Below, one piece after another: positions 4,558 to 64,000 of a stretch of DNA of 64,000 bases; position 1 is the first letter of the stretch; every line of letters starts with the position of its first letter. The notes beneath the pieces are model-generated. The model was not told the DNA's origin and ran no database searches. It saw only the letters and a list, made by a program, of their open reading frames with translations. Made by a program: the position numbers and the translations under genes. Source of the stretch: a virus (lineage: Duplodnaviria > Caudoviricetes); the IMG/VR virus record IMGVR_UViG_3300017987_005501. One strand, given 5' to 3'.

Positions 4558-5217
4558 TTATAGTCCTCTCTCTTTGAGCCAAGCAGCGATTTTCATAAGA
4601 TTCTCGGCTTCATCAAGAAGAGCTTTACTACGGGAAGCAGCATCCTTTAGCATACTAGCATTCTTGGTTTTATTCCATACACCAAGATCATAATAAGTTT
4701 GGTTATCACTTTGATCCCCATAGGTTTCTTTTGCTTCTCTAACCGCTTGTTCATAAGACATTGTCATGTCGTCCAGTTCTTTTTGACTCATACGGTTTTG
4801 TTCCTCAGCAGAAACCCCATGCATATAATCATGGGGCTTACCTTCGCTAGCATTTTTAACAGCTTCGCGTTGCTCTCTACGATTATGTGCGTTCTGTTCC
4901 TCAGCGGAAATCCCATGCATATAATCATGCATATCTTCTTCATCTGGCCAGCCAGCACTCTTATCACTAGCTTCCTCACTAACTTCTTCGCTAGCTGTTT
5001 TTTCACCAGTATCTTTTAGACCACTTGTTGACCAAGGCTCTTCCGCTTCAGAAACATCCTTGAGTTCATCATAAAATTCTTTGCGTTGCTCTTCTTGGGG
5101 AACCCCATGCATATAATCCTGAGGCTTATCTGCTTGTTTCTTAAAGACAGCGTCGAGCTCTTTTGCAATATCAGCAATGTCGTTTGCGATCTTAATGAAT
5201 TCAGATTCAGATGACAT
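4558..5217 (-). CDS. Acidic protein with three DYMHG(V/I)(S/P)xEEQ repeats; probable virion/head protein
   Basis: AGGAG SD upstream; three internal repeats; several KxAS-type motifs. Confidence 0.7.
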   Translation of the reverse strand: MSSESEFIKIANDIADIAKELDAVFKKQADKPQDYMHGVPQEEQRKEFYDELKDVSEAEEPWSTSGLKDTGEKTASEEVSEEASDKSAGWPDEEDMHDYMHGISAEEQNAHNRREQREAVKNASEGKPHDYMHGVSAEEQNRMSQKELDDMTMSYEQAVREAKETYGDQSDNQTYYDLGVWNKTKNASMLKDAASRSKALLDEAENLMKIAAWLKERGL

Positions 5218-5288: not shown

Positions 5289-5292
5289 ATGC

Positions 5293-7142: not shown

Positions 7143-7910
7143 TTATGTATTAGTCTGTCCTGGCTGATAGCCATATCTAAAATTCTGAATACCCCAATCT
7201 CTTAGTTGTTGAGGGGTAGCTTTTATTCTTGTCGTCTTGTTCCTAAACGGAAGACTTAGATTTTGATTTGTTGTATCTGGGGACGCAGGCTGAGGAGGAA
7301 TAGATTCCCAATCAGACTTTTTATTCGTGTCCCAAGCATTAATTCTTGCAGCACCAGAAGCAAATCCTGCTCCAATAGGGACTCCATCTGTTAGCCATTG
7401 TGCCCCGATTGGAATTGTTGGAAAACCGCCTCCACTAACTTCCATTGCCTGAATATTTGCAAAAGCAGTATTCCAGGTAACAAAGTCTTGAACGGCTCCG
7501 ACTGTATCGACAAGCATTGCCCAACCGACCCTATTGGCAGTCCAATTTATATTAGAGCCCCAATAGTCTGGACTTGCAATCTGGTCGTCCCAATAGTTAA
7601 TCTCATAAGGTTGAAGAATCCCTAATGTTTGAGTTACCGTGTTAGATTCATTAAGATCTGTTGATTCAGATAAAATTAATTGCCACCCAGTAGCATCAAA
7701 AGCTGCGGGAGTAACATTTTGAATTTCAATATAATCAGGATCTGTGTTAAATTCGGTAATTAAGATTGGGCTCGTATAAGCAATTTCCCTAGCCTGCATT
7801 CCGTTCTTTTCAGAAACTTGATATTGCGTGGAAGGTTGAGGCCGTTGCCCTCGGCCAGGTCTTGTTGTCACGTTAAATAAATTAAAGTTACTATTAAATA
7901 GTGTTCCCAT
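7143..7910 (-). CDS. Lamin-tail-domain (LTD)-like protein
   Basis: ILITEF...DYIEIQN.....D.TGWQL pattern typical of LTD. Confidence 0.7.
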   Translation of the reverse strand: MGTLFNSNFNLFNVTTRPGRGQRPQPSTQYQVSEKNGMQAREIAYTSPILITEFNTDPDYIEIQNVTPAAFDATGWQLILSESTDLNESNTVTQTLGILQPYEINYWDDQIASPDYWGSNINWTANRVGWAMLVDTVGAVQDFVTWNTAFANIQAMEVSGGGFPTIPIGAQWLTDGVPIGAGFASGAARINAWDTNKKSDWESIPPQPASPDTTNQNLSLPFRNKTTRIKATPQQLRDWGIQNFRYGYQPGQTNT

Positions 7911-9260: not shown

Positions 9261-10328
9261 CTAGATTAGACTAAGGGAATCTTCGAAATGAGATAAAATA
9301 GTATCAATATCTTTTTTGGAGAGGATTAAGGGAAAATGAAACCTAACGAGGATGTTATTAAAGGTATTGACCAAAATCTGATTTTTCTTAAAAATATTAG
9401 ATAAAGAAGTGGTATTTTCCCGTCTAAAACTGATAGAAAAATAGAAGCCCCAATTTTTAATTTCTAAAATCTTTTTGGATCTTTTCTTAATTAGATCGAG
9501 TCTTTTTCTTATATAAAGATTTAAGTCAGATACATTTTTTAAGTATTTTTGTTGTTCGTTTAATAATTCATAGGCCCGCAAATAATCAAGGTCCCAAGAA
9601 GTTTTATTTATAAATTCTAGATTTAAATTAGAAGAAATCCCTGATAAGTTAGGGAGAACTTTAAAAATAACTAAGTGAGGATAAAGTTCTAAGCCTTGGC
9701 AAATGAATGGAGTCCCCGTTTGCCCGCAATAAAAATTACTCTCATCAAAAATTAATAAAGTTTGGTATTGGTCGCAAAGTTTCTTAAGTTTTTTTAGAAA
9801 ATTAAACCTAAAGGATAAGTCCCTTTCAAAAGTTTGGATGGGGTTTAAAATAAAGGCAGCTACGTTTACAGAATTCAACTTGAAAAGGGTCTCAATCCTA
9901 TCTAATACCTCGTTTTCTGAGTCGGTATTGGGTTCTGGAGGAGAGGTAGAAATTGCATTATAATCTTCTTGTAATTTAGAATGTTTCGAATTCGTAAAAT
10001 AAAAGATTTTCGGGCTTAAGTCCCTAAACCCTAATTTAGAAGCCATTCTTTTTTTGTACCTAATAGAAGATTTAATAGCCGATTCAAGAGCAATATCTGT
10101 ATTATTAAACAAAACGGTTTCTCTAAAAGATTTTGGGATTTGGGACTTCCAAAAGCTTAAAAATATATCTTTGATATTGCTTTTCGAGGTGGGGGCAGTA
10201 AAAATTAAATCATTAAACTTATTTTCTAGTTTTTTTAAATTGGGATTATTATCCCCCAGAGGGAGTGGAGAACAGAAATTGTAATTTGATTCGGAATTAA
10301 GTTTTTTATCACTCATAAAGGTCTCCAT
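9261..10328 (-). CDS. Degenerate class III PLP aminotransferase (L-lysine 6-aminotransferase-like)
   Basis: IALESAIK, AAFILNPIQ, LKKLCDQYQTLLIFDE and CGQTG echo LAT motifs, but DEVQTG and FGKK are altered; start may be 10316. Confidence 0.6.
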   Translation of the reverse strand: METFMSDKKLNSESNYNFCSPLPLGDNNPNLKKLENKFNDLIFTAPTSKSNIKDIFLSFWKSQIPKSFRETVLFNNTDIALESAIKSSIRYKKRMASKLGFRDLSPKIFYFTNSKHSKLQEDYNAISTSPPEPNTDSENEVLDRIETLFKLNSVNVAAFILNPIQTFERDLSFRFNFLKKLKKLCDQYQTLLIFDESNFYCGQTGTPFICQGLELYPHLVIFKVLPNLSGISSNLNLEFINKTSWDLDYLRAYELLNEQQKYLKNVSDLNLYIRKRLDLIKKRSKKILEIKNWGFYFSISFRRENTTSLSNIFKKNQILVNTFNNILVRFHFPLILSKKDIDTILSHFEDSLSLI

Positions 10329-11103
10329 GCTAACAGGGTCTTACTATTCTTACTCCCGCCTAAATTCCTTCGTGACCTGCCCCTACCAATTTAAGTTAAA
10401 ATATATTGATGGGCTTGACACTAAGCAGTCTATTGAAGCTTATATGGGCTCTAACGTACATTATACTTTAGAATATTTATACAAAGAACTTCTTGAAAAG
10501 AAACCATGCCCAAGTTTAAAAGACCTCCTAATATATTATAAACAACAATGGGAAGATAATTGGGAAGATTCCATTTTTATTATTAGAGATAAGTCTAAGA
10601 CATACTATTACCGCCTTGGGCAACATTGCATTAAATTTTATTATAATGTATACCAACCCTTTGAAGAGAAAACGCTGGGGATTGAATACGAGGTTGACTT
10701 TAAGCTTAAAGGTTATAGGGTAAAGGGGTATATCGATCGTTTGGTTGAAAAAGATGGGAATATACTAGAAATTATAGATTATAAAACCGGGAGGGTCTTC
10801 CCGACTAAAAAAGAGTTTAAGGAAAACCTACAACTAGCATTATACCAATTAAAGATCCAAAAAGAATTTCCCGATAAAAAGATTTACCTTGTTTGGCATT
10901 ATCTTCAAAGAAAAAGAACGGTTAGATTATTTAAGAAACCTAAAGAACTCTTAGAAGCCAAAGAAAAATTCTTAGCAACGATTAAGCAACTTGAAAATAC
11001 AAAAGTATTTCCCCCTAAAAAATCTTTCTTATGCGCTTGGTGCTCTTTTAAGGATTCTTGTCCCGTGTATACTTTTCAAGGGATTCAAAAGTGTTCTTTT
11101 TAA
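10327..11103 (+). CDS. PD-(D/E)XK RecB/Cas4-like exonuclease
   Basis: SYSRL..F.TCP, GYIDRL, IIDYKTG, QLALY, C-terminal CAWCSFKDSC. Confidence 0.85.
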   Translation: MLTGSYYSYSRLNSFVTCPYQFKLKYIDGLDTKQSIEAYMGSNVHYTLEYLYKELLEKKPCPSLKDLLIYYKQQWEDNWEDSIFIIRDKSKTYYYRLGQHCIKFYYNVYQPFEEKTLGIEYEVDFKLKGYRVKGYIDRLVEKDGNILEIIDYKTGRVFPTKKEFKENLQLALYQLKIQKEFPDKKIYLVWHYLQRKRTVRLFKKPKELLEAKEKFLATIKQLENTKVFPPKKSFLCAWCSFKDSCPVYTFQGIQKCSF

Positions 11104-31678: not shown

Positions 31679-31987
31679 TTATTCCTCTTTACTTTCCTTG
31701 GTATCTTGAACAAGGTTTTGCTTAAATAAATTAGAAACCTTAAATCGAACAGCCTTTCTTTTGGGAATCACAACGTCTTTTCCTTCAGTAAAAAGGGAAT
31801 TAGTAACTTTTTTAGCCCTTTCCACGACCTGGAAAGTACCAAACCCTGGGATATTAAAGTTATTTCCAGAGGTAACTTCATCCTTAATGATGCCGACATA
31901 AGAATCTATAATCTGCTTAACAACTTTTTTATCTCCCTTAATTCCCAACCTTTTACAAATTTCATTTAATACTTCTACTTTTCTCAT
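31679..31987 (-). CDS. HU/IHF-like DNA-binding protein
   Basis: IPGFGTFQV..R......N......IP....VRFK. Confidence 0.9.
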   Translation of the reverse strand: MRKVEVLNEICKRLGIKGDKKVVKQIIDSYVGIIKDEVTSGNNFNIPGFGTFQVVERAKKVTNSLFTEGKDVVIPKRKAVRFKVSNLFKQNLVQDTKESKEE

Positions 31988-35058: not shown

Positions 35059-35385
35059 TTATTCTAGTATCTGAAAAAAGAACCCTTCGAATTCAGAAAC
35101 CGGTATTTCCAAATCCCCAATTTTAAATACTAATAAATGGCGGTCGTTTCTAACTAATTCGTAGCGCGATTCGGATTGTTGCAACTGAATAGAATGATGT
35201 TTAAAAGCTTTAAATGTTAAAACTCCTTTTTTCTCAATGCGTTTTAGATGGGAATGTACTGCAGCATTTGTTATACTAAACCGTCTTGCTATTTCAGCCT
35301 GTGCCGGAGAGATACCGTTTTTTCTACGGTATTCCTTAATAAAATTAACAATTTCCTTTTGTCTTTTCGTTAAACTTCTTGCCAT
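35059..35385 (-). CDS. LexA-type winged-helix DNA-binding domain protein without peptidase domain
   Basis: LTKRQKEIVNFI......G.SP...EIA......AV..HL..IEKKG; only 108 aa. Confidence 0.8.
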   Translation of the reverse strand: MARSLTKRQKEIVNFIKEYRRKNGISPAQAEIARRFSITNAAVHSHLKRIEKKGVLTFKAFKHHSIQLQQSESRYELVRNDRHLLVFKIGDLEIPVSEFEGFFFQILE

Positions 35386-36823: not shown

Positions 36824-37537
36824 ATGTCAGATCTTATCAAACAAGCCGGTTTCGATGATGACGCAGTTCCAAGTTCCCGCCCAGATAATTACAAAGCAAA
36901 AGAAGGAAAGCAAGACCGCATTGCAATGGCATGGGTCGCAGATGAGATCAGTAAAAAAACTGGGAAAAGAGACCCTCAGTTTATTTTTGCTCCCACCTTC
37001 TATGTTCCAGGAAACGGTTATATCCTAGCCAAGCCTGGATTTGACAAGCTAATTGGGAAACAACCCAAGAAACGTTTTGCTACCGTCGTAATTGTTTACC
37101 AAACTGATAAGGAAGGGGAACTATTTAAGGATGAAGATGGAAAGCCTATTTTAAGCTATTCCATTAAGCCTTGGTTCTTCTCAGAGCAAAAGTATCGCGA
37201 TCTTAAGAGCCTGCACAATAAGTGGGATCTTTCCAAGCACGATCTTGATATTAGCTGTATTGAGGAACAATACCAGAATATCACCATCCAACCGCACCCT
37301 AATTCCTACCTAGAAAAGATGATGCAAAAAGAGAAGTATAAGGAAAAGTTAATGGCTCAAATTGAAGCCACTATTCAAACTCTTCCAAATTCTCTTGGTA
37401 GGGATTTAACAGAAGAAGAGCTTAGGGAAGATGTTCTTGAAGAGGAAGAGCAAAGTGTGACTGATGATAGCACTGAAGAATTTTCCAATTCGGACTCTGA
37501 TGAAATTATGAACGATATCCTTGACGATATTGAGTAA
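36824..37537 (+). CDS. Putative single-stranded DNA-binding protein
   Basis: AGGAG SD; aromatic-rich core with very acidic C-terminal tail; located next to ruvC/recA. Confidence 0.55.
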   Translation: MSDLIKQAGFDDDAVPSSRPDNYKAKEGKQDRIAMAWVADEISKKTGKRDPQFIFAPTFYVPGNGYILAKPGFDKLIGKQPKKRFATVVIVYQTDKEGELFKDEDGKPILSYSIKPWFFSEQKYRDLKSLHNKWDLSKHDLDISCIEEQYQNITIQPHPNSYLEKMMQKEKYKEKLMAQIEATIQTLPNSLGRDLTEEELREDVLEEEEQSVTDDSTEEFSNSDSDEIMNDILDDIE

Positions 37538-37551
37538 TAGTTTTTACCCCT

Positions 37552-37583
37552 AAAAAAAACTCAGCTTCGTGCTGGGTTTTTTT
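37552..37583. terminator. Bidirectional terminator between convergent ssb and ruvC
   Basis: aaaaaaaactcagc-ttcgt-gctgggttttttt. Confidence 0.75.
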
Positions 37584-38289
37584 ATCGTTTCCGTTCTTTT
37601 TTTGCCTTTTTAATATCTTTTGATTTGCGGCGGGCCTTAGAATCTGAGAACCGATAAAAATGTTCATACTCTCTATATAGAATACCTTCTTCTCCAACTT
37701 TGGGTTTTCCCGCCTTAATTCCCCTTTTATAATAAGGGCGGGCCGCAAAGGCTTCCTGTTCGACTTTTGTTAAATCTGAAACTTCAACTTTCTGATCATG
37801 TAGATTCCAAAAATTAGAAGCAAAATAAGAGACATGGAAAGCATCAGCAATGTCTCCTTGGATTTTAACACCGTTAATTACGGCTTTTTCTAATCCTAGT
37901 TTTTTCTTCATCGATTTAATCATATCACTTTTCGTAACTTTAGTGTTAGATGAAATTCTAGCGAGTTTTTTAAGTTGCATAGGGGCAAAATAAACGACAT
38001 CTACCTTCTTTTTAAATAACATTGATTTAATAAAAGAATACAAGGCAAACATATTTTCAGATTGGATAGCATGAAAAATGGGAGATTCTGATCCACACCG
38101 AACAATTTTATATTTTTTAATTAAGGCAGCTAGCTTTTTTGCGATTGTTTCATATCTCAAAATCTCAAGCATAGCTTCGCTTGTTTGGATTAACCCAACC
38201 TCGACTACCGACTCTGGTCCTGTTTTTTCATTATCTAAGACGCAAAAGCCAGTATTTGTTAGAGAGGGGTCAATTCCTAATATATGCAT
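37582..38289 (-). CDS. ruvC: RuvC-like Holliday junction resolvase
   Basis: ILGIDPSLTNTG, ESP, PMQLKK, K..M, DIADA. Confidence 0.85.
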   Translation of the reverse strand: MHILGIDPSLTNTGFCVLDNEKTGPESVVEVGLIQTSEAMLEILRYETIAKKLAALIKKYKIVRCGSESPIFHAIQSENMFALYSFIKSMLFKKKVDVVYFAPMQLKKLARISSNTKVTKSDMIKSMKKKLGLEKAVINGVKIQGDIADAFHVSYFASNFWNLHDQKVEVSDLTKVEQEAFAARPYYKRGIKAGKPKVGEEGILYREYEHFYRFSDSKARRKSKDIKKAKKERKR

Positions 38290-38361
38290 GCTTCTTCCTT
38301 ATAGGGTTCTTTATATATATTTACAGTTACAAAAGACTTTTCTTGGCACTCTTGTTTCTCC

Positions 38362-38427
38362 CATCTGGAACTTCCTCATGAAATTGACCATCATTACTAT
38401 CTTATTAATGATTTATATTGCTATTAG
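38362..38427 (+). repeat. Left arm of perfect 66-bp inverted repeat
   Basis: catctggaacttcctcatgaaattgaccatcattactatcttattaatgatttatattgctattag is the exact reverse complement of 38812..38877. Confidence 0.95.
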
Positions 38428-38811
38428 CTAAATCGCTTTATGTAAACATAAAACAAGGAATATATATAAACATATATTCAATTTAAAAATAGGTTTAAAA
38501 ATAAAGGTTAATATGTTAAACTGCTTTTGGGGAATATAGAATGGCTTTAAAGTAAAATAAAAAAGTATTTTAAAATCAGGTTGAGTTTTCAGGATTTAAA
38601 TCTATTTGAACTATTTAAAAAAGATTTTCATCCCCATTGATCCGAAGACTCGCTTGTATAAAGATCTGAAGGTAGCGAAAATTAGGAATTAATATCCTGT
38701 CTAGGTCGTAATGCTCCTAGAATAAAAAAAGGCGCTGTTATACTGCAAGTTTAACTCCTGCTACCCTAAAAATCAACTGGAATAGCTTGCAGGCTACTAC
38801 TACTAATGGCA

Positions 38812-38877
38812 CTAATAGCAATATAAATCATTAATAAGATAGTAATGATGGTCAATTTCATGAGGAAGTTCCAGATG
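38812..38877 (-). repeat. Right arm of perfect 66-bp inverted repeat
   Basis: Checked base by base against 38362..38427; 384-bp AT-rich spacer. Confidence 0.95.
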
Positions 38878-38894
38878 AAAATAATGGTACTAGC

Positions 38895-38917
38895 TTGGTT
38901 GAGAAGTTGGTTGAGAA
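38895..38917 (+). repeat. Short direct repeat TTGGTTGAGAA x2
   Basis: Copies at 38895 and 38907 (12-bp period), 17 bp outside the right IR arm. Confidence 0.6.
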
Positions 38918-39044
38918 CCGCAAGTGGTTGTTTGATCCCAAAAGCATACCCTCAAAAACTTCCCATCTTAGGAATCAAAGCTCCCCTATCTTGTATTAAT
39001 AATTGTTATGTGCCGAAGTCTAAAATCACTTAGGAGACTAAATT

Positions 39045-41687
39045 ATGGCAAAAAAGAAAAAAGAATTGGAATCAGCAACTAGCAAAGCGAAATCAAAGAT
39101 TGCAGGGAAGATTGATGAGGATTACGTAGATCTTTCAGGTAGTTTTCAAAGAAACTACGATGTAATCAATTCTGGGTCAGTTATTATTAATAAAGTAATC
39201 GGATGCGGAGGCATTCCTAGAGGGAGAATTACTGAAATATTCGGCCCGCCTAGCAGTGGAAAGTGTTTGGTAGGGGATTCTCTTCTTTTTACCCCACAGC
39301 AAGGAATTATAAAAATAGAGAAATTATATCATTCTCTAAAGGATAAACCGGGTCCGGATTCAGCAGTGGAATACCAGGAAAAGATTCTTGGAAAGGATGG
39401 TATTAAAACTACCTCACATTTTTATAATGGAGGCGTTAAAAAAACCAAAAAAATTAAATCTAGATATGGTTACGAGGTTGAAGGGACCCGGGTACATCCT
39501 ATTCTTGTAATGGAAAAATCTGGAAAACAGGTTTGGAGAAAATTAAAGGATGTAAAAAAAGGGGACTATATTTGTATTCAGAGAAATCAGCAATGTTTTG
39601 GAAAAGAATATATAAAATTAGATTGGGAATATAAAAAAGAATCCAGATGGGAAACTAGCACCAAGAAATATAAAATTCCTACTTCTATTGATGAGAAGTT
39701 AGCTTCTTTCTTAGCTTATGTTATAGCAGAAGGAACAACAACATATAAAACTTCTATGGGAATTTCACAAAAAGAAACTGAAGTTGCAAATATTATTAAA
39801 AAATTAGCAAAAAGTCTTTTTGGAAAAGAATTGGTTCTAAAAAAAGAATCTCTTAAGGATTATAATTTTAGTTCGAAACAAATTAGGTCCTTTTTATATG
39901 AAGCGTTAGGGGTTAATTATGTTAAATCGAATAAAAAGGAAATTCCAGATCTTATTCTTCAATCCCCCAAATCTGTTCAACAAGCGTTTCTTCGTTCTTA
40001 TTTCGAAGCAGAGGGATCAGTAACAAGCGACTGGGTTGAAATTTCTTCAGCGAGTAAGTGGTTGGTTCACCAATTACAGGTAATGCTTCTTAACCTAGGA
40101 ATTATTGCTAACCAACGAATTATTCATAATTCCGCGACAAACAGTTCAAACCCTGTTGAAAGAGACTACTATAGTCTTTGTTTAACGGGAAATAATATTA
40201 ACATCTTTGCTAAAGAAATTGGTTTTGAATCCACACGGAAGACACAAAAACTCGATTCCTTAGTAAAACAACGTAATTCTTTAATGGAAAGATCTAATGT
40301 CGAATCTATTCCATACCAAAAAGAGTTAGTCCTTGCTTTTAAGGATGAAGTGATTAGCGAGCAAGGGACAGGCCGAGGGGGGAATTTCCCTCGAAAGGGC
40401 TTTAAAAATGTATATGGAAATAATCTCGTTAAAAGATTAGAGGCTATTAAATACCGGGGGGATAATCTATCTTATCTGACCTGGAAAAGAATAAAAGAAC
40501 AAGCTCCAAAGGAACATCAGGAATTAAATTCTTTTTCTAAGATTGAGCGAAATATTGAAAACCAATTCTTTTATGATCTAGTAACAGAAATTACAGAATC
40601 GGAAGCTCAAGTTTATGATTTAACTATTCCAGATGGGCATAATTTTACATCAAATGGAATTATTTCGCATAATACGACACTGGCTACCTCTATCTGTATC
40701 CAAGCACAAAGAGAAGGCCATTCTTGTTTATATCTGGATTACGAACATGCTTTTGATCCTAGTTATGGAAAAGCAATTGGGCTAGACTTAGATCCCAATA
40801 AATTTGCACTGTATCAACCCAACTTTTTAGAAAAAGGTCAAGAACTAATTACAAGAGCACTAGCAACCCATACTCTAGTGAAGTCTACAGGGGCTAAAAA
40901 ACAAATCCCAGATAATGAAAGAGGAATTTGGATTGATCAAAAGAAGGGTATTGGCATTGGGGTCCCAGTAGTTATTATAATTGACTCTGTTGCAGCCTTG
41001 ATTCCAAAGAAGGAATACGAAGGCGAACATGATACAATGGAAATCGGGCTCTTACCTAGATTATTGTCAAGGTATCTAAGAAAGCTCGTAAGCCTTATTA
41101 AAGCTTCCAATTGTGCGATTGTTTTAGTTAATCAAGAAAGAACTAACATTAAAATGGGTCCTTTTGCTGCCGCAGGACCTGATTATGAAACTACTGGCGG
41201 TAAGGCAGTTAAATTTTATGCTAGTGTAAGGCTAAGATTAAAGTTGAAGAAAAAGGAAAAAGCTCGCGTCTTTAATGAGATTCAAGGAACAAAGGAAGAA
41301 CTTCCTATCCAGAATGTTATTAAATGTACAGCTGTTAAAAATAAGGTGGGAATGCCCTATAGAACTGGGGATTTCGTAATCCGCTTTGGGGAAGGGGTTG
41401 ATAATGTCCGTAGCATTGTTGACATTGCTATCAATGCTGGAATTATTAATAAAGGTGGGGCCTGGTTTGATTATAAATCTCTAGTAGATGAGGCCCACAA
41501 TTTTAGGGTTCAGGGAATGGAGAAAGTTCGAGATATCGTAATTGAAAAAGATTACCTTATTGACGAATTACAAGAAAGGCTAGAATCCTATTTTAATCAG
41601 GGCGATAAGAAGGAAACAGCCTCGGACCTAGAAAAAATGGAAGACATTGAATTAATTAGCGAAGAATATGGGGACGATGACGATTAA
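39045..41687 (+). CDS. recA: RecA with intein
   Basis: GGIPRGRITEIFGP.SSGK|TTLA, D.EHA.DP.Y, DSVAAL.PK.E.EG, NQER, TTGGKA.KFYASVRL, KNKV. Confidence 0.95.
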   Translation: MAKKKKELESATSKAKSKIAGKIDEDYVDLSGSFQRNYDVINSGSVIINKVIGCGGIPRGRITEIFGPPSSGKCLVGDSLLFTPQQGIIKIEKLYHSLKDKPGPDSAVEYQEKILGKDGIKTTSHFYNGGVKKTKKIKSRYGYEVEGTRVHPILVMEKSGKQVWRKLKDVKKGDYICIQRNQQCFGKEYIKLDWEYKKESRWETSTKKYKIPTSIDEKLASFLAYVIAEGTTTYKTSMGISQKETEVANIIKKLAKSLFGKELVLKKESLKDYNFSSKQIRSFLYEALGVNYVKSNKKEIPDLILQSPKSVQQAFLRSYFEAEGSVTSDWVEISSASKWLVHQLQVMLLNLGIIANQRIIHNSATNSSNPVERDYYSLCLTGNNINIFAKEIGFESTRKTQKLDSLVKQRNSLMERSNVESIPYQKELVLAFKDEVISEQGTGRGGNFPRKGFKNVYGNNLVKRLEAIKYRGDNLSYLTWKRIKEQAPKEHQELNSFSKIERNIENQFFYDLVTEITESEAQVYDLTIPDGHNFTSNGIISHNTTLATSICIQAQREGHSCLYLDYEHAFDPSYGKAIGLDLDPNKFALYQPNFLEKGQELITRALATHTLVKSTGAKKQIPDNERGIWIDQKKGIGIGVPVVIIIDSVAALIPKKEYEGEHDTMEIGLLPRLLSRYLRKLVSLIKASNCAIVLVNQERTNIKMGPFAAAGPDYETTGGKAVKFYASVRLRLKLKKKEKARVFNEIQGTKEELPIQNVIKCTAVKNKVGMPYRTGDFVIRFGEGVDNVRSIVDIAINAGIINKGGAWFDYKSLVDEAHNFRVQGMEKVRDIVIEKDYLIDELQERLESYFNQGDKKETASDLEKMEDIELISEEYGDDDD
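39264..40673 (+). mobile_element. LAGLIDADG intein (470 aa) in the RecA Walker A (GK|T)
   Basis: Starts CLVGDS, block B GTRVHP, LAYVIAEG and FEAEGSV, ends ISHN with +1 Thr. Confidence 0.93.
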
Positions 41688-42679: not shown

Positions 42680-43843
42680 ATGCCAATAGACGTAAGAATA
42701 AAGAACGCACAAGCAATCGAAGATGTATCTTTTCAGATTAATGGGTTTACTTGTCTTGTTGGTAAAAGCAATATCGGAAAAAGTAGCGTTTTAAGATCCC
42801 TCCAATCAATGTTTAAGAATTCTGGGGGTTTGGTTAGGCATGGAAAAGACTCCTGCGAGGTTTTTTATAATGACGGAGATCTTAATATCCACTGGACAAG
42901 AGGGAAAGAAAACAAATACAAGATTAATGAAACCGAGTATCAAACTGGAAGGGATATACCCCCTCCGATCTTAGACGCAGGAATTAAAGAATTAATTATT
43001 GGAAACTCTTCTACCAAACAAAAGATTGATGTTCAAACGAACGGCCAACATTCCCCATTATTCCTTATAGATAAGAATAAAAGAGAGGCTGCTGAAATTA
43101 TCTCTGCAATCTCTCGGCTAGATGTAATCTCAAAAGCATCAAAAGAATGTAACAGGGACCTTAAACAGTATAAGGGTAAGTTAAAATTACGGGAATCGGA
43201 TAGGGACGCAGTATCGCAACAGCTAAAGAAATTTGAAAATCTTGAAAACCTTAAAAATTCCTTCAGCTCCCTTCTTTCTTCCTTAACTAAAACACAAGAG
43301 GGATTTAATAAGGTAACGGAATTAAAATTAAAGTTAAAAAAATTAAAAGATTTAAGTAAGAGAAAAGAACTGTATGATAAAATAAAATTAATAGAAATTC
43401 CAGAATTTGTTTTGGATTTGTCCCAAAATAGGATTGAAAAATTAAAAGGGATCAGCGACAACCTTTCCTTAATAAAAGCTGAGATTAAAATTCTTAAAAG
43501 AATTAAAACACTAAAAATTCCAACTTTTAATGAGGACGAACATAGAAAATTATTATCCTTAACTGTAAAGTTAGAAGAAATTAAAGCATTGTCAAAGAAA
43601 ACGTTATTAAGGGAAGAACTAGAAAAAATAAAGATGGTTTCTTTGTCCTCCCTGGAAGGAACCGTTCAGCAATTAGAAGTTTTTAAGGAAATTAAAAACC
43701 GTCTTAATGAAATAAATAAGAGTATAGAAGAAACAGAGGAAGAAATCGGGAAGTTGAAGGATAAGCTTTTAAAGTTAAAAGAAGGTAAAGCGAAGATAGA
43801 GAAAAATCTAGGATCTTGCCCAATTTGTGGAAAGGAATTTTAG
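42680..43843 (+). CDS. sbcC: SbcC/Rad50 N-terminal half (Walker A, coiled coil, zinc hook)
   Basis: IKN.Q, GKSNIGKSS, Q-loop, coiled coil; ends CPICGKEF. Confidence 0.85.
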   Translation: MPIDVRIKNAQAIEDVSFQINGFTCLVGKSNIGKSSVLRSLQSMFKNSGGLVRHGKDSCEVFYNDGDLNIHWTRGKENKYKINETEYQTGRDIPPPILDAGIKELIIGNSSTKQKIDVQTNGQHSPLFLIDKNKREAAEIISAISRLDVISKASKECNRDLKQYKGKLKLRESDRDAVSQQLKKFENLENLKNSFSSLLSSLTKTQEGFNKVTELKLKLKKLKDLSKRKELYDKIKLIEIPEFVLDLSQNRIEKLKGISDNLSLIKAEIKILKRIKTLKIPTFNEDEHRKLLSLTVKLEEIKALSKKTLLREELEKIKMVSLSSLEGTVQQLEVFKEIKNRLNEINKSIEETEEEIGKLKDKLLKLKEGKAKIEKNLGSCPICGKEF

Positions 43844-44878
43844 GTGTTTAATTTTATAACAGTTGGGGATGTTCATTCAGCAGATAAAAATCCAGGCGCG
43901 AGGGTTGGGGATTATTTTATAGACACATTCGATAAGCTAGATCAAATTGCTATTATTGCTGAAAAGGTTAAAGCTGATGCCGTTTTTTTCTTGGGAGATA
44001 TATTTCATATTAAACAACAAAAAGAAAATAGTTGTAAGTTAATAGCCAATTGGATCGAACTCCTAAAAACTTACCCTCCAACTATAGGAATCGCTGGCAA
44101 CCATGACGAATCTTTTAATAACCCGGAGACAATCCCAAACCAACCAATTGGGGTTTTAGAAGCTAGCGGACACTTAACCCTTTTAGATGAAAAATTAGAT
44201 AAACATTATATCTTTGAGAAAGCTGGAATTAAGATTAGGGTTGCAGGATATCCTTATGAAAAGAAACTAGGAATATCAGCTTGTGATATTAAGAAAAAGG
44301 ATGAGGATATATTAATTGCCCTAGCCCATATTTATGCCGGCCCAAAAGAAAAGGATCTTTTCGGGGAAACAATTTATGGATACGATAAGATGGTTTCTTT
44401 TAATCCTGATATCTTTTGTTTTGGCCATTACCACGTCGACCAAGGGGTTCGAAAAAAAGGTACTAAATATTTTATAAACCTTGGTGCCATAACGAGAGGG
44501 TCCATTTCAAAAGATGACCTAGAAAGAAAACCTAAGGTTGGTTGGATAAGTATTAACGAGAAAAGAGAAATAACAATTAAACAAATTAAATTAAAAGTAA
44601 AACCTTCTAATGAGATCTTTAACCTTGAATTAAAAGAAGAGATTGAATCGGAAAATGATCAAATTAACGCCTATATAGAAAAATTAAAATCAGAAATCGA
44701 AGGGACGAAGGTTGAGGCTAATATTGCGAAACAAATTGGAAGCCTGGACCTTTCCACAGAAGTAAAAGATATGGTTTACCATTATCTTGAAAAAGCCGGG
44801 CTAGAAAAAGGAGAGATAGAGTCCTCCGATATTTTAGCAAATATTACATTAAAAGGAGAAAATGATGGCGACAGTTGA
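43844..44878 (+). CDS. sbcD: SbcD/Mre11 nuclease
   Basis: GDVH, LGDIFH, GNHD, AH, GHYH; GTG start. Confidence 0.9.
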   Translation: MFNFITVGDVHSADKNPGARVGDYFIDTFDKLDQIAIIAEKVKADAVFFLGDIFHIKQQKENSCKLIANWIELLKTYPPTIGIAGNHDESFNNPETIPNQPIGVLEASGHLTLLDEKLDKHYIFEKAGIKIRVAGYPYEKKLGISACDIKKKDEDILIALAHIYAGPKEKDLFGETIYGYDKMVSFNPDIFCFGHYHVDQGVRKKGTKYFINLGAITRGSISKDDLERKPKVGWISINEKREITIKQIKLKVKPSNEIFNLELKEEIESENDQINAYIEKLKSEIEGTKVEANIAKQIGSLDLSTEVKDMVYHYLEKAGLEKGEIESSDILANITLKGENDGDS

Positions 44879-47179: not shown

Positions 47180-48415
47180 ATGGCAAAATTTAAGATTAAA
47201 AAAGAAGCATTATTAGATAACTTAAATCTAGCTTCTCTTGCGATAAATCGAAGGGAAGAAGATATTACAAGTAACTTTGTTTTTAAGGTTGAGGATGAAA
47301 AACTTGTAATTTTAGCAACTGATAATACTTCAATTGCAAAAGTAAAGGTTGGAAAAATTAGTCTAGAGGGCGATGATAATGAATCCTTTTCTTTTACCTT
47401 AAAAGCTCAAAAAGTTTTAGGGTTGTTAGGGACCTTAAAAAAGGATAACGAAGTCGAGTTTAATTTTAATAAGGCAGATATGAATGTCGTTATTAATGAA
47501 ACTTATGATTTTCCTTCTCTTGATCCAGACGATTTCCCAGAATTTAATAGTGAAATTGAAAAGGCAGAGTCTATTTCGGAAATAAAAATTGATGCATTGA
47601 GTAATGCCCTAAAATATATTAATGGGTTTATTGGGAATGACCCTCAAGGCCGTCCAGAATTAACTATTGGTTTAATTAAGGATAATACTTTCTTGGCGAG
47701 TAATGGAAAAACCTTTGGGGTATATGAATCTAAGGACCTTAAAGCAGATGGGTTTGAAGTAAGCTACAACGTTATTGGAAATATCCAGAAGTTTACTAAG
47801 GGTTTTGAAACCCCTATTGTTGTTGAGCCTAAAGATAAAAATAAGGACGACGACTCTAAGGACGACGACTCTAAGGACGACGACTCTAAGGACGACGACG
47901 GAGCGGTTGTCCCCTCTAAAAAGATAAAGCTACTGAAAAGTTCTAACTTTTTCATTATTGCTTCCCCCGACGAGTTAAACTACTATGGGTTTAGAAAGTG
48001 CGACTATAAATTCCCAGCTCAAAAGCTTCAAACGCAAATTGAGAAGGGAAAGGACGCAGAAACAAAATGCAAAATTTCTCGAGTTGAACTTTCGGAAGTC
48101 ATTAACCGTTTATCTTTCTGTATCGATGAAACAAGCAATAGGATGTCTTTTGTATTAACTGGGGATTCAGACGAGGCAGAGTTAGAAATCTCTGTTATTG
48201 GTTCCCATAAAAGGACAACTACAGAAAAAATGAAGGTCTCAAGACTTTCAGGCGAAGAGGATATTACTTTTAGCCTAAACTTTAACCACTTAACTAAAGT
48301 TTTACCCCTTTATGACAGCCCTGAAATAATCCTATCAGAAAATAAAGCTATTATGTTATCAGACGAACTTGACGACCACAATCTTTATGGGATGATTGCA
48401 GTTTTAAGGAGTTAA
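47180..48415 (+). CDS. dnaN: DNA polymerase III beta-type sliding clamp
   Basis: Three-domain length; L.I.ATD; FP; L...L.R; I.FN...L pattern of DnaN. Confidence 0.75.
   Translation: MAKFKIKKEALLDNLNLASLAINRREEDITSNFVFKVEDEKLVILATDNTSIAKVKVGKISLEGDDNESFSFTLKAQKVLGLLGTLKKDNEVEFNFNKADMNVVINETYDFPSLDPDDFPEFNSEIEKAESISEIKIDALSNALKYINGFIGNDPQGRPELTIGLIKDNTFLASNGKTFGVYESKDLKADGFEVSYNVIGNIQKFTKGFETPIVVEPKDKNKDDDSKDDDSKDDDSKDDDGAVVPSKKIKLLKSSNFFIIASPDELNYYGFRKCDYKFPAQKLQTQIEKGKDAETKCKISRVELSEVINRLSFCIDETSNRMSFVLTGDSDEAELEISVIGSHKRTTTEKMKVSRLSGEEDITFSLNFNHLTKVLPLYDSPEIILSENKAIMLSDELDDHNLYGMIAVLRS
47842..47899 (+). repeat. In-frame 15-bp tandem repeat (about 3.9 copies) encoding KDDDS
   Basis: (taaggacgacgactc)x3 plus taaggacgacgac, DNA-perfect. 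Confidence 0.95.
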
Positions 48416-61171: not shown

Positions 61172-64000
61172 ATGCAGACATCGACAGCAGTAATCCAGGA
61201 TTCCATATTCAGTACCCAAATGGCTTATGAAAATTGGATAAGCAAATACCGGTATAAACAAGAAAACCCAATCGATACTTTTAGAAGAGTTGCAAAAGAG
61301 TTAGCAAAAATAGAAGCTCCAGATAAAAGAGAATATTGGGAAGATAAATTTTTCCATGCAATGGTTAAAGTGGAAAACGGAATAGCAGTCGGGCTAAAAT
61401 GTACTCCTGGCGGAAGAATCACATCAAACGCAGGAGCGAAAGATAAAAATAAGGGAGGAAAAGCAACCCTTTTTAATTGTTTTATTAATGGCCCCGTAAC
61501 AAACGCAAATATTAATTATTCAAAGGATATCCAGAACGAAAAGGTAGCATTTAAACTTAAGACCTCCGATTCCCCGGATGACCTTAATAATATTTTTCTA
61601 ACTATCCTAGAGCAAGCAAAAACACTTGCATCCGAAGGTGGTTATGGAATTAATTTTGATTTTATTCGTCCTCGAGGTTCTGTTATTAAGGGAACGAAAA
61701 TTAAGCATCCTGGAGTCTTATCCTATATGAATGTTTGGGATACGGTTGCAGCGATGATTATCAAGGGGGATAACGATGGCTATGCTGATACCCTCAAAAA
61801 TTATTTAACGGAAGAAGAACAAGAACGCTGGGAAGCGGAATTTGAAAACTTAAAGAGGGCACCTCGCAAAGGTGCTATGATGGGATGTTTAACCGTATCA
61901 CACCCTGATATCGAAGAGTTTGTGCGTGCCAAACAAACTCCAGGAGTTTTGACAAAGTTTAACATCTCAGTTGTTGTAACAGATGAGTTTATGACAGCAG
62001 TTGCAGAAGACAACCTTTTCGAATTAAAATTTAATGGTAAAGTTTATAAAAGAATCAAAGCTCGCGACCTTTTTGACCTCATTATGAAAAGTACCTATAA
62101 CCGGGCAGAACCAGGGATTCTTTTCTACGATAATATGCAGAGAAATAACCCGATTAGTTACCTAGGAAAGGTTAATGCAACGAACCCGTGTTTTACTGGG
62201 GAAATGCGTCTTCATACCAACAAAGGGCTTATAACATTTAAGCAGCTGCATGAGAATGGGAAGAAAAATATCGTTGTCGTAGACGAAAGAGTTTATGACG
62301 AAGGTAAAATCGATACTGAAAATTTAGGAACTTCCTTAAAAAGGGCATCGGAAGTTGTACTAACGGAGAAAAAAGCTAAAATTTTAAGGATTACAACTTT
62401 GGATGGCCGAGAACTTAGAGTTACCCCCTACCATAGATTCCCTACCCTTACGGGATTTAAGGAAGCTAAAGACCTATCAATCAACGATCCTATTTATTTG
62501 CAATCGGAGGAGGGGCGATGGGGGAAAAAAGGATCCTTTGAGTATGGGATTTTAGTGGGGCTACTTACTGGGGATGGCACTTTCTCCCAAGACATTGATT
62601 ATAGAACTGAAAGTAATTATTCCTCGGACCGTGCAATTATTTCCTTATGGAACGAGGATACGGACACTATTAATCGGGTTCGGGGTTTCCTTAAAGTTCT
62701 GTTTAATAAGGAGTTGAAAGGAAATCTTAAAAAGAATGCTTCTATTAATGGGTATTCAAGATTTAATTTCTCCTCAAATCTTCTTTACTCAAAAATTAAA
62801 TTAGACCTGGATGAAGAAAATCCAAGACTTATTAAAGCTCGGGTTCCAGATTTCGTTTTCAAGGGAAGTCGCGAGATGATCGTGGGATACCTCCAAGGTT
62901 TATTTTATGCAGATGGTAGTGTGAATTTTAGCGATAAAAAAAGAGATTTAACACTTCGGCTTGCTCAAAGCAATAAAAAGCTTTTACAAGATGTCCAAAA
63001 TTTACTTTCTAGTTTTGGCATTAACGCAAAGCTACGAAAAGCCCGAGACGAAAACGAAACAATGCTTCCTGATGGAAGAGGGGGTTATAAGGCATATTCC
63101 TGTAAAGCTAATTATGAGCTTATTCTAAATAGGTTTAACACCATAAGGTTTAAGGAAAGAATTGGCTTATTCGGAAAAGCAAAAAATAAGAAATTAGATA
63201 ATGCTTTACAAACATTCCAAAAAAACCCATATAAAGAAAAATTTGAAACGAAAATTATTTCAATCGAAGAAGATGGGGAAGAGGACGTTTATTGCCTAAA
63301 CCAACCAGAAAACGAGTCCATTATTGTAAATGGAGTTTTAACTGGAAATTGCGGAGAGATTCCGGGAAATCCAACTATCTCAACAACTTGTTTATTAGGG
63401 AACTTAAACCTAACTGCCTATGTGAGAAAAGATAGAACATTCGATTATGAGTCTTTTAAGGAAGACGTAAAAACATTTGCTAGGTTATTGGATAATGTAA
63501 ATGATATTTCTTTTTTGCCTCTTTCAAGATATGAAAATGCTGTTAAGTCATTAAGGCAATATGGAATGGGTCTAAATGGTCTTGGTTCTGCCTTAATCAT
63601 GATGGGAATCCCCTATAATTCCCCGGAAGGAATTGCTTTTGCCGAAGAATTGGCATATCTTAAAGAAAATATTACGATGCAAACCAGTGCCTTACTCGCA
63701 AAAGAAAAAGGCGCTTTTCCTTATTATTGTGAGGATTTTCTAGATACGGATTATTTTAAGTCTGATAGGCTAACAAGCGAAACAAAGGCTTTAGTTAAAA
63801 AGTATGGAGTTAGAAACGCAAAAACAACAACGAACCCACCCAATGGAAATACTTCCATTATCTGTGATATTGTCTCAAACGGAATTGAACCTGTGTTCAT
63901 GCTTGAATACGAGCGATTTAGAATGGCGGACGACTGGCCAGAAGGATTAAATCTCGATAATGTTAAAACTTTACTGGATGAAATCAAGATTGGAGATGCT
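61172..64000 (+). CDS. nrdJ: Class II (B12-dependent) ribonucleotide reductase with intein (partial; runs off window end)
   Basis: Not in ORF track. Manual translation from ATG 61172: PGGRI..NAG, TL.NC, GG.G..FD.IRP.G, RKGAMM, HPDIEEF, FNISV, AEPG, NATNP|CGE, CLLG, GLNG, PPNGNTS...NGIEP. Confidence 0.9.
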   Translation, partial: MQTSTAVIQDSIFSTQMAYENWISKYRYKQENPIDTFRRVAKELAKIEAPDKREYWEDKFFHAMVKVENGIAVGLKCTPGGRITSNAGAKDKNKGGKATLFNCFINGPVTNANINYSKDIQNEKVAFKLKTSDSPDDLNNIFLTILEQAKTLASEGGYGINFDFIRPRGSVIKGTKIKHPGVLSYMNVWDTVAAMIIKGDNDGYADTLKNYLTEEEQERWEAEFENLKRAPRKGAMMGCLTVSHPDIEEFVRAKQTPGVLTKFNISVVVTDEFMTAVAEDNLFELKFNGKVYKRIKARDLFDLIMKSTYNRAEPGILFYDNMQRNNPISYLGKVNATNPCFTGEMRLHTNKGLITFKQLHENGKKNIVVVDERVYDEGKIDTENLGTSLKRASEVVLTEKKAKILRITTLDGRELRVTPYHRFPTLTGFKEAKDLSINDPIYLQSEEGRWGKKGSFEYGILVGLLTGDGTFSQDIDYRTESNYSSDRAIISLWNEDTDTINRVRGFLKVLFNKELKGNLKKNASINGYSRFNFSSNLLYSKIKLDLDEENPRLIKARVPDFVFKGSREMIVGYLQGLFYADGSVNFSDKKRDLTLRLAQSNKKLLQDVQNLLSSFGINAKLRKARDENETMLPDGRGGYKAYSCKANYELILNRFNTIRFKERIGLFGKAKNKKLDNALQTFQKNPYKEKFETKIISIEEDGEEDVYCLNQPENESIIVNGVLTGNCGEIPGNPTISTTCLLGNLNLTAYVRKDRTFDYESFKEDVKTFARLLDNVNDISFLPLSRYENAVKSLRQYGMGLNGLGSALIMMGIPYNSPEGIAFAEELAYLKENITMQTSALLAKEKGAFPYYCEDFLDTDYFKSDRLTSETKALVKKYGVRNAKTTTNPPNGNTSIICDIVSNGIEPVFMLEYERFRMADDWPEGLNLDNVKTLLDEIKIGDA
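62189..63349 (+). mobile_element. LAGLIDADG intein (387 aa) at the RNR active site (NP|CGE)
   Basis: Starts CFTGEM, block B VTPYH, GLLTGDG and GLFYADG, ends LTGN with +1 Cys. Confidence 0.9.

Follow-up and report, generated by a model that had tools for sequence, protein, structure and literature searches.

The ruvC-recA intergenic region

The stretch of DNA analyzed here, 64,000 nucleotides of the Caudoviricetes record IMGVR_UViG_3300017987_005501 (hereafter the window), carries a perfect 66-bp inverted repeat in the intergenic region between two divergent recombination genes. The first of these, ruvC (37582..38289, minus strand), encodes a RuvC-like Holliday-junction resolvase (PF02075, E=1.5e-08), and the second, recA (39045..41687, plus strand), encodes a protein recognized by the RecA Pfam family (E=7.5e-50). 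The RuvC of the window is located on a contig of 283,534 bp (~283.5 kb), and the source is a giant uncultured phage. The 755-bp gap between the two genes (38290-39044) ranks first among the internal gaps separating open reading frames (ORFs) of at least 80 aa, in agreement with the original prediction, which had described it as the largest intergenic gap; the region past 61138 is occupied by a gene that continues beyond the window end.

A repeat search of the sequence recovered the predicted element in full. The left arm (38362..38427) and the right arm (38812..38877), to which no strand is assigned, are complementary at 66 of 66 positions and enclose a spacer of 384 bp, the whole forming a 516-bp element with terminal inverted repeats and sharp ends. 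A match of this kind cannot be attributed to chance, and no other long inverted repeat (at least 28 nt) occurs in the window, bar one 30-nt pair at 80%. The sharpness of the boundaries that had been noted earlier is confirmed by blastn (word size 7), which detects no decayed arm similarity extending outward into the flanks or inward into the spacer, and the reported lack of a target-site duplication also holds, the flank ends being different (...TTTCTCC and AAAATAA...).

The gap marks a switch in gene strand. Left of ~36 kb the large ORFs are all on the minus strand, with one exception (10327-11103); two plus-strand ORFs followed by the minus-strand ruvC occupy 36-38.3 kb, and every ORF to the right of the gap is on the plus strand. 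The surrounding 26.4-52.3 kb, in which 30 ORFs were scanned, constitute a DNA-metabolism module comprising an HU-like protein (31679-31987), RecD2, a LexA-type winged-helix protein, Tmk, RuvC, RecA, SbcC-like and SbcD-like proteins (42680-44878), a PD-(D/E)XK nuclease, a sliding clamp, an NYN-domain protein and a DnaG-like primase. The identities previously proposed for the neighbors RuvC, RecA and SbcCD are borne out by Pfam. Downstream of ruvC, a 44-bp gap separates this gene from a convergent gene of 237 aa and contains a bidirectional intrinsic terminator (~37549-37581) composed of an A-run, a GC hairpin and a T-run.

Occurrence of the repeat in independent samples

The locus is contained in eight public metagenome runs from six studies, with no RNA run listed among them, and four of these runs were inspected over 37900-39400 in the form of Logan k=31 contigs. 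In X1 (sediment, 2018) and X2 (seawater, 2021), which represent separate studies and separate habitats, the contig graph has the shape expected for a true two-copy repeat: the left-flank contig terminates at 38391, 30 nt into the left arm; a 444-nt contig (38398-38841) comprises the spacer together with 30 nt of either arm; the right-flank contig begins at 38848, 30 nt inside the right arm; and the arm itself forms a 66-nt contig of its own. The depth of this arm unitig is 21.9 and 24.4 in the two samples, compared with 9.3-10.7 for all other contigs. Since the arm is covered at about twice the depth of the spacer and flanks, it must be present twice and the spacer once per genome, which in turn excludes a multi-copy element.

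A JGI (Joint Genome Institute) contig of 88,776 bp from a separate assembly contains a 755-bp gap that is identical in both sequence and orientation, and further copies of the arm were found neither in the window nor in IMG/VR, the JGI metagenome contigs or the GTDB genomes. The repeat is a genuine feature with two arm copies per genome in independent samples. The assembly artefact, which had been retained as a caveat, was rejected on the combined strength of the contig graph, the depth values and the independent JGI contig.

A conserved non-coding core within the spacer

The closest relatives of the window's RuvC are 51-65% identical to it, and the RuvC proteins of the relatives L002, L003 and L006 are 53-54% identical. 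The gene order recA ... ruvC, a gene of 233-243 aa, tmk, the LexA-type gene and recD2 is kept in the relatives. L002 and L003 carry four additional genes between recA and ruvC, encoding a release-factor-like protein, proteins of 125 aa and 162 aa, and an M23 peptidase; none of the four is found in the window, so they provide no explanation of the arms. The release-factor-like protein (L002 6450-7517, minus strand, also in L003) combines PCRF and RF-1 domains, and its gene adjoins ruvC; an equivalent is missing from the window, whose ORFs are read normally with the standard code.

Conservation in relatives had been suggested as a check on the element, and the outcome differs between its parts: a long inverted repeat upstream of ruvC is missing in every relative examined, whereas a core within the spacer is kept. 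This core consists of two non-coding blocks, both read on the minus strand. Block 1 (38726..38743), GTATAACAGCGCC followed by a T-run, is common to L002/L003 and L006 upstream of ruvC, and block 2 (38702..38719), TAGGAGCATTACGACCTA, has the form of a 4-5 bp stem with an almost invariant 10-nt loop. The order and orientation of the blocks relative to ruvC are alike in the window, L002/L003 and L006, the distance between them varies (5, 11 and 29 nt), and each block is unique in the window.

To score conservation, ungapped segments were compared with matches weighted by base rarity, against 200 dinucleotide shuffles; a test based on exact shared k-mers was not significant, being dominated by AT-rich words. 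In each of the three pairs compared, the two highest-scoring segments are blocks 1 and 2. Between the window and L006, block 2 scores 30.8 bits and block 1 scores 29.3 bits, so that both exceed all 200 shuffles (17.7 +/- 1.9, maximum 26.2). The corresponding scores are 25.0 and 20.6 bits for the window and L002 (shuffles 18.8 +/- 2.0, maximum 25.4), and 37.0 and 30.8 bits for L002 and L006.

The stem of block 2 is TAGG/CCTA in L006 as in the window, and in L002 it is ATGG/CCAT, two pairs being changed on both sides. These two-sided changes hint at a hairpin, although they are drawn from three lineages only and a dyad bound by a protein would look alike. Folding of the right half of the spacer revealed no structured RNA on either strand relative to shuffles (z = +0.39 and -0.21), Rfam returned no match over 37500-39500 at E<=1 and nothing on the conserved core of L002 or L006, no complement of the block 2 loop was found as a target, and the window contains no tRNA or tmRNA.

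Searches beyond these relatives were negative within their scope. The two-block pattern has no match in IMG/VR, and its six matches in metagenome contigs, all of them in GC-rich coding sequence from unrelated organisms, were dismissed as chance. The DNA of 37500-39500 matched nothing in the phage collection, and a RuvC profile retrieved only distant relatives from IMG/VR and GTDB (24-46% identity). LR745208, a 485-kb phage whose RuvC is 34% identical, has neither the inverted repeat nor the conserved blocks, apart from one chance-level match with 1 mismatch.

In L002, and also in L003, the same core is surrounded by a near-perfect direct repeat of 33-40 nt ending in TATAAT (L002 7650-7689 and 7865-7904), which indicates that the region tends toward local duplications differing by lineage. 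L002 also contains a perfect AT palindrome of ~20 bp at ~7544-7563. Because the relatives share the spacer blocks at the same locus, the spacer is ancestral intergenic DNA rather than the cargo of a transposon, and the repeat formed at this site. The alignments show the spacer to be native DNA common to distant relatives, and what is new here is a conserved non-coding core within it, maintained across phages whose RuvC proteins are ~53% identical.

Composition of the spacer and small ORFs

The two halves of the spacer differ in composition. The left half (38428..38625) has a GC content of 20.7% and contains a palindrome and A-tract repeats, and the right half (38626..38811), which bears the conserved core, has 39% GC; as for the arms, no strand applies. 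The lowest-GC 198-bp stretch of the entire window coincides almost exactly with the left half (38429-38626, 20.2%), although the runners-up reach 21.7-23.7% and it is accordingly no outlier. The small palindrome mentioned in the original prediction was found at 38437-38452. Between the right arm and recA lies a tandem 12-mer, TTGGTTGAGAAG, in 1.9 copies (38895..38917, plus strand), and a third GGTTGAG occurs within the spacer at 38579.

The earlier statement that the element holds no credible ORF stands in part: nothing inside it is clearly coding, but a hydrophobic ORF of 31 codons with its start in the right arm (38766..38861, minus strand) has a codon-usage score of 0.19, intermediate between coding (0.33 +/- 0.17) and non-coding (-0.15 +/- 0.15) values. 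This ORF is possibly a small gene. Its 31-aa peptide yielded no usable match in Atlas and has no counterpart in the gaps of the relatives, and no Rfam match was obtained at the locus when a type I toxin-antitoxin system was considered. Read inward, either arm opens with an ATG followed by hydrophobic codons, and the left arm accordingly contains a 17-codon copy of the start of this ORF (38378..38431, plus strand) whose stop lies one codon past the arm.

Two further ORFs are directed outward. A putative leader-like ORF of 52 codons runs from the outer edge of the right arm (38875..39033, plus strand); it opens at AGGAAG-N6-ATG, and its stop overlaps the ribosome-binding site of recA. Its mirror image in the left arm is a 17-codon ORF (38311..38364, minus strand) ending 21 nt before the ruvC start. 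Codon usage is non-coding in both, with a score of -0.08 for the 52-codon ORF.

Proposed origin of the inverted repeat

The repeat is neither a transposon nor an assembly artefact, and it is unlikely to serve as a cruciform substrate. The explanation that we favor, at somewhat less than even confidence, is that an inverted duplication of 66 bp originated locally in this lineage, around an ancestral ruvC-recA control core; it would be either young or gene-converted, would have no dedicated enzyme and may flip by general recombination. Under this explanation, a 66-bp piece would have been duplicated in inverted form, in place, in this lineage, and the duplication would now bracket the ancestral control core, namely the two conserved blocks and the AT-rich tract. 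The identity of the arms would reflect either the youth of the duplication or its maintenance by gene conversion, and no enzyme would be dedicated to the repeat.

Given that the phage encodes its own RecA, RuvC, RecD2 and SbcCD-like proteins and that the arms offer 66 bp of perfect homology, the 384-bp spacer may flip now and then. Seen from ruvC and recA, such a flip would turn the conserved core and the AT-rich tract around while leaving every protein unchanged; stops are present in all three frames of the arm read outward, so inversion cannot splice a protein across it. If the repeat is merely a young inverted duplication, it would be no more than what a highly recombinogenic phage genome ordinarily produces, and it would offer a clean test case for recombinase-independent flipping.

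Several observations weigh against this explanation. Perfect identity and sharp edges fit a selected structure equally well, and the position of the repeat is conspicuous, at the strand-switch point, ahead of the replication and recombination module, and around both the conserved core and the most AT-rich stretch. The arms also have an internal order, with a dyad of 7-9-7 and with AGGAAG-N6-ATG opening leader-like ORFs toward the ribosome-binding sites of ruvC and recA, which hints at a regulatory cassette instead of neutral DNA. Moreover, the evidence on spacer orientation comes from assembled contigs and not from reads, and there is no relative at 70-95% identity to show whether the repeat is conserved.

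Alternative explanations

An alternative that we consider doubtful is that the 755-bp gap is a replication origin, in which a promoter-proximal core and an AT-rich unwinding tract would be marked or stabilized by the repeat. Consistent with an origin, the gap contains the lowest-GC 198-bp stretch of the window, single-copy non-coding blocks kept across distant relatives, and the tandem 12-mer with the third GGTTGAG; it is situated at the divergence point of two gene blocks, ahead of the genes for HU, RecD2, Tmk, RuvC, RecA, the SbcCD-like proteins, the clamp and the primase; and the gaps of the relatives are likewise rich in repeats and palindromes. However, the low GC content is closely approached by other stretches, no initiator gene was identified alongside, and the repeat is absent from the relatives, which makes it non-essential to any origin that they share.

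GC skew had been suggested as a source of evidence for an origin, and the cumulative minimum of the window does fall in the spacer, at 38454. A G excess of ~+0.1 nonetheless accompanies the coding strand of every gene, regardless of location, and at fourfold-degenerate sites the leading strand is not enriched in G. Because the skew tracks the coding strand, the minimum marks the switch in gene strand and does not constitute independent evidence for an origin.

The conserved core is a more useful result than the repeat itself, as it represents a single-copy DNA or RNA signal retained across phages whose proteins are about half identical. It heads the replication and recombination module, and this candidate origin or master regulatory site would be a short, testable target; to our knowledge, no such site is known for this giant-phage clade. 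In a bolder form, to which we assign a low probability, the gap would serve an unstudied clade of giant phages from sea and sediment as its origin or master control site. The blocks, one of them a small hairpin with an almost invariant 10-nt loop, would be the recognition element; in this lineage the perfect inverted repeat would have enclosed that element along with its AT-rich tract, and homologous recombination between the arms could reverse the direction in which the site fires.

It is quite unlikely, in our judgment, that the arms are duplicated regulatory cassettes, acting either as inward promoters with a dyad operator, from which transcription would enter the spacer at both ends, or as a shared outward leader and translation start that would co-regulate ruvC and recA. 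The basis of this proposal is a sigma-70-like TTGACC-N17-AATGAT in either arm, overlapped by the dyad ATCATTA-N9-TAATGAT (7-9-7, at 38390-38412 in the left arm). The promoter-like site of the right arm is ~77 nt upstream of block 1, and ~60 nt upstream of the same block in L002 there is a copy of the direct repeat that includes a perfect TATAAT. In addition, the ORFs opened by AGGAAG-N6-ATG end at the ribosome-binding site of recA or 21 nt before ruvC, and a gene for a LexA-type winged helix is 3 kb away.

On the other hand, a sigma-70 scan of the gap returned 3 sites, compared with 5.8 +/- 2.4 in shuffles, and a terminator scan was likewise at or below chance. Elsewhere in the window, good matches to the arm dyad or the arm promoter pattern are lacking, and hence there is no sign of a regulon; the outward ORFs have the codon usage of non-coding DNA; and ruvC and recA each possess their own ribosome-binding site and an upstream sequence of the TTGTAA/TTGTAT type, all outside the repeat.

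The reading preferred in the original prediction, an invertible segment that flips a promoter, finds no positive support, and we regard it as very unlikely. It would require a programmed switch in which the spacer is turned by a recombinase whose gene lies elsewhere in the 283-kb genome, a promoter thereby being redirected toward ruvC or recA. The geometry of an inverton is present, inverted repeats flanking a short non-coding segment between divergent genes, and putative invertons close to where viral coding sequences start have been reported in metagenomic data (PMC13501310). Nevertheless, no Pfam family of serine or tyrosine recombinases was detected among the 30 ORFs of 26.4-52.3 kb, none being encoded within ~12 kb; the arms are far longer than typical recombinase sites; no ORF extends from the spacer outward through an arm; and the spacer contains no recognizable phage promoter motif. 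In the case of the late-promoter-like motif TAATAATCCATTAAT, which has 7 copies in the window, none is in the gap, where the best score is 4.8 bits (rank 77). The spacer points the same way in both assemblies available, and the core has this orientation in the relatives as well. Orientation cannot be read from the k=31 contigs, since these do not span the 66-bp arm and all junction words are common to both isomers.

We give very little credence to an RNA element, in which a transcript across both arms would form a 66-bp duplex that is cut by RNase III, thereby processing or silencing a ruvC or recA leader or the small ORF. As a single strand the element does fold at -102.9 kcal/mol (z = -15), and the stem would hide the start of the small ORF, which is located in the arm. 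Against this, transcription entering from the left on the plus strand is stopped by the bidirectional terminator (~37549-37581), the right side offers no upstream gene on the minus strand, and no promoter was identified in the flanks; an RNA hairpin would therefore need a promoter within the short flanks.

Extrusion of a cruciform from a 66-bp stem with a 384-nt loop, or its processing by SbcCD or RuvC, is physically unlikely in view of what is known of palindrome spacers, and a spacer of 384 bp between the arms does not fit a cruciform or hairpin substrate for these enzymes, in which the arms are adjacent or nearly so. Finally, the insertion of a non-autonomous mobile element (a foldback or a miniature inverted-repeat transposable element, MITE) between ruvC and recA, suggested by the terminal inverted repeats, sharp ends and length of 516 bp, merits next to no weight, as it is largely refuted by the missing target-site duplication, depth values that correspond to exactly two arms and a single spacer in each genome, the lack of any copy elsewhere in the window, IMG/VR, the JGI metagenome contigs or GTDB, and an interior made of DNA that distant relatives carry at the same locus.

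Other features of the window

The LexA-type protein of the module (35059-35385, minus strand, 108 aa) consists of the DNA-binding domain alone, without a peptidase domain. Its gene is next to tmk and recD2 in all relatives, and it is a candidate regulator of the repair and recombination module. The RecA of the window has 880 aa, its extra length being due to an intein with a LAGLIDADG homing-endonuclease domain; the recA of a relative also carries a LAGLIDADG intein, and a second intein-like stretch (62387-63352) lies within the gene that leaves the right end of the window.

A strongly conserved intergenic motif, [TC]TAATAATC[CT]ATTAAT, occurs at 5291, 9240, 14003, 14427, 20525, 30630 (-) and 50243 (+). 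Six of its seven copies are upstream of minus-strand genes at 5-31 kb, taken as virion genes, and the copies score 19.6-24.5 bits with a position weight matrix, the next site reaching 14.1. Judging from this distribution, the motif is probably the late promoter of the phage.

Internal repeats are found in two genes. Nearly four perfect tandem units of 15 nt (TAAGGACGACGACTC) at 47842-47899, within the sliding-clamp-like gene (47180-48415), would add a short acidic peptide repeat. A 46-nt unit is present three times (78% identical, 96 and 192 nt apart) at 4798-5131 within the gene 4558-5217, which encodes an internally repeated protein, presumably a virion component by its position.

Comparison with known systems

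In cyanophages, segments bounded by inverted repeats are reported to coexist as two isomers, which according to the authors could persist without a dedicated recombinase (bioRxiv 10.64898/2026.02.14.705889). As in the present case, no dedicated invertase has been identified for the inverted-repeat-flanked segment of the Anabaena cyanophages of the A-1(L)/N1 group; repeats of 400-700 nt delimit a gene-bearing segment of ~30 kb in that case, and both isomers are documented by polymerase chain reaction and by reads (bioRxiv 10.64898/2026.02.14.705889). In the window, by contrast, repeats of 66 bp enclose 384 bp of non-coding DNA, and of the possible isomers one orientation is known, from two assemblies.

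The classical invertible segments, such as the G segment of Mu with Gin, the C segment of P1 with Cin, Salmonella hin and E. coli fimS, likewise consist of a short segment in inverted repeats beside genes that may depend on its orientation. These systems use short recombinase-specific sites, and the recombinase gene is typically adjacent or nearby. The element described here differs in its 66-bp arms, in that no recombinase was found nearby, and in that no effect of a flip on coding or on a promoter was recognized.

In T4-type phages, PeSLs are motifs composed of a promoter and a stem-loop, present in multiple copies and flanking gene cassettes. The resemblance to the repeat is that PeSL cassettes are also short repeated intergenic regulatory sequences of a large, recombination-proficient phage and serve as substrates of homologous recombination and of local rearrangement (PMC2839356; PMC4122927). 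The repeat of the window has two copies only, which are inverted and flank non-coding DNA.

With respect to replication, the gap may be compared with two kinds of origin. The T4 origins oriF (uvsY) and oriG lie beside a recombination gene and consist of a promoter and an AT-rich unwinding element, the transcript priming synthesis; they are not known to have a long inverted repeat. The oriL of herpes simplex virus 1 is a perfect palindrome between divergently transcribed replication genes, without a 384-bp spacer and in an unrelated virus. The likeness of the gap to these origins is one of analogy. The known kinds that come closest to the inverted repeat and its spacer are genome isomers bounded by inverted repeats, invertible segments, PeSLs and, by analogy, origins of the T4 type.

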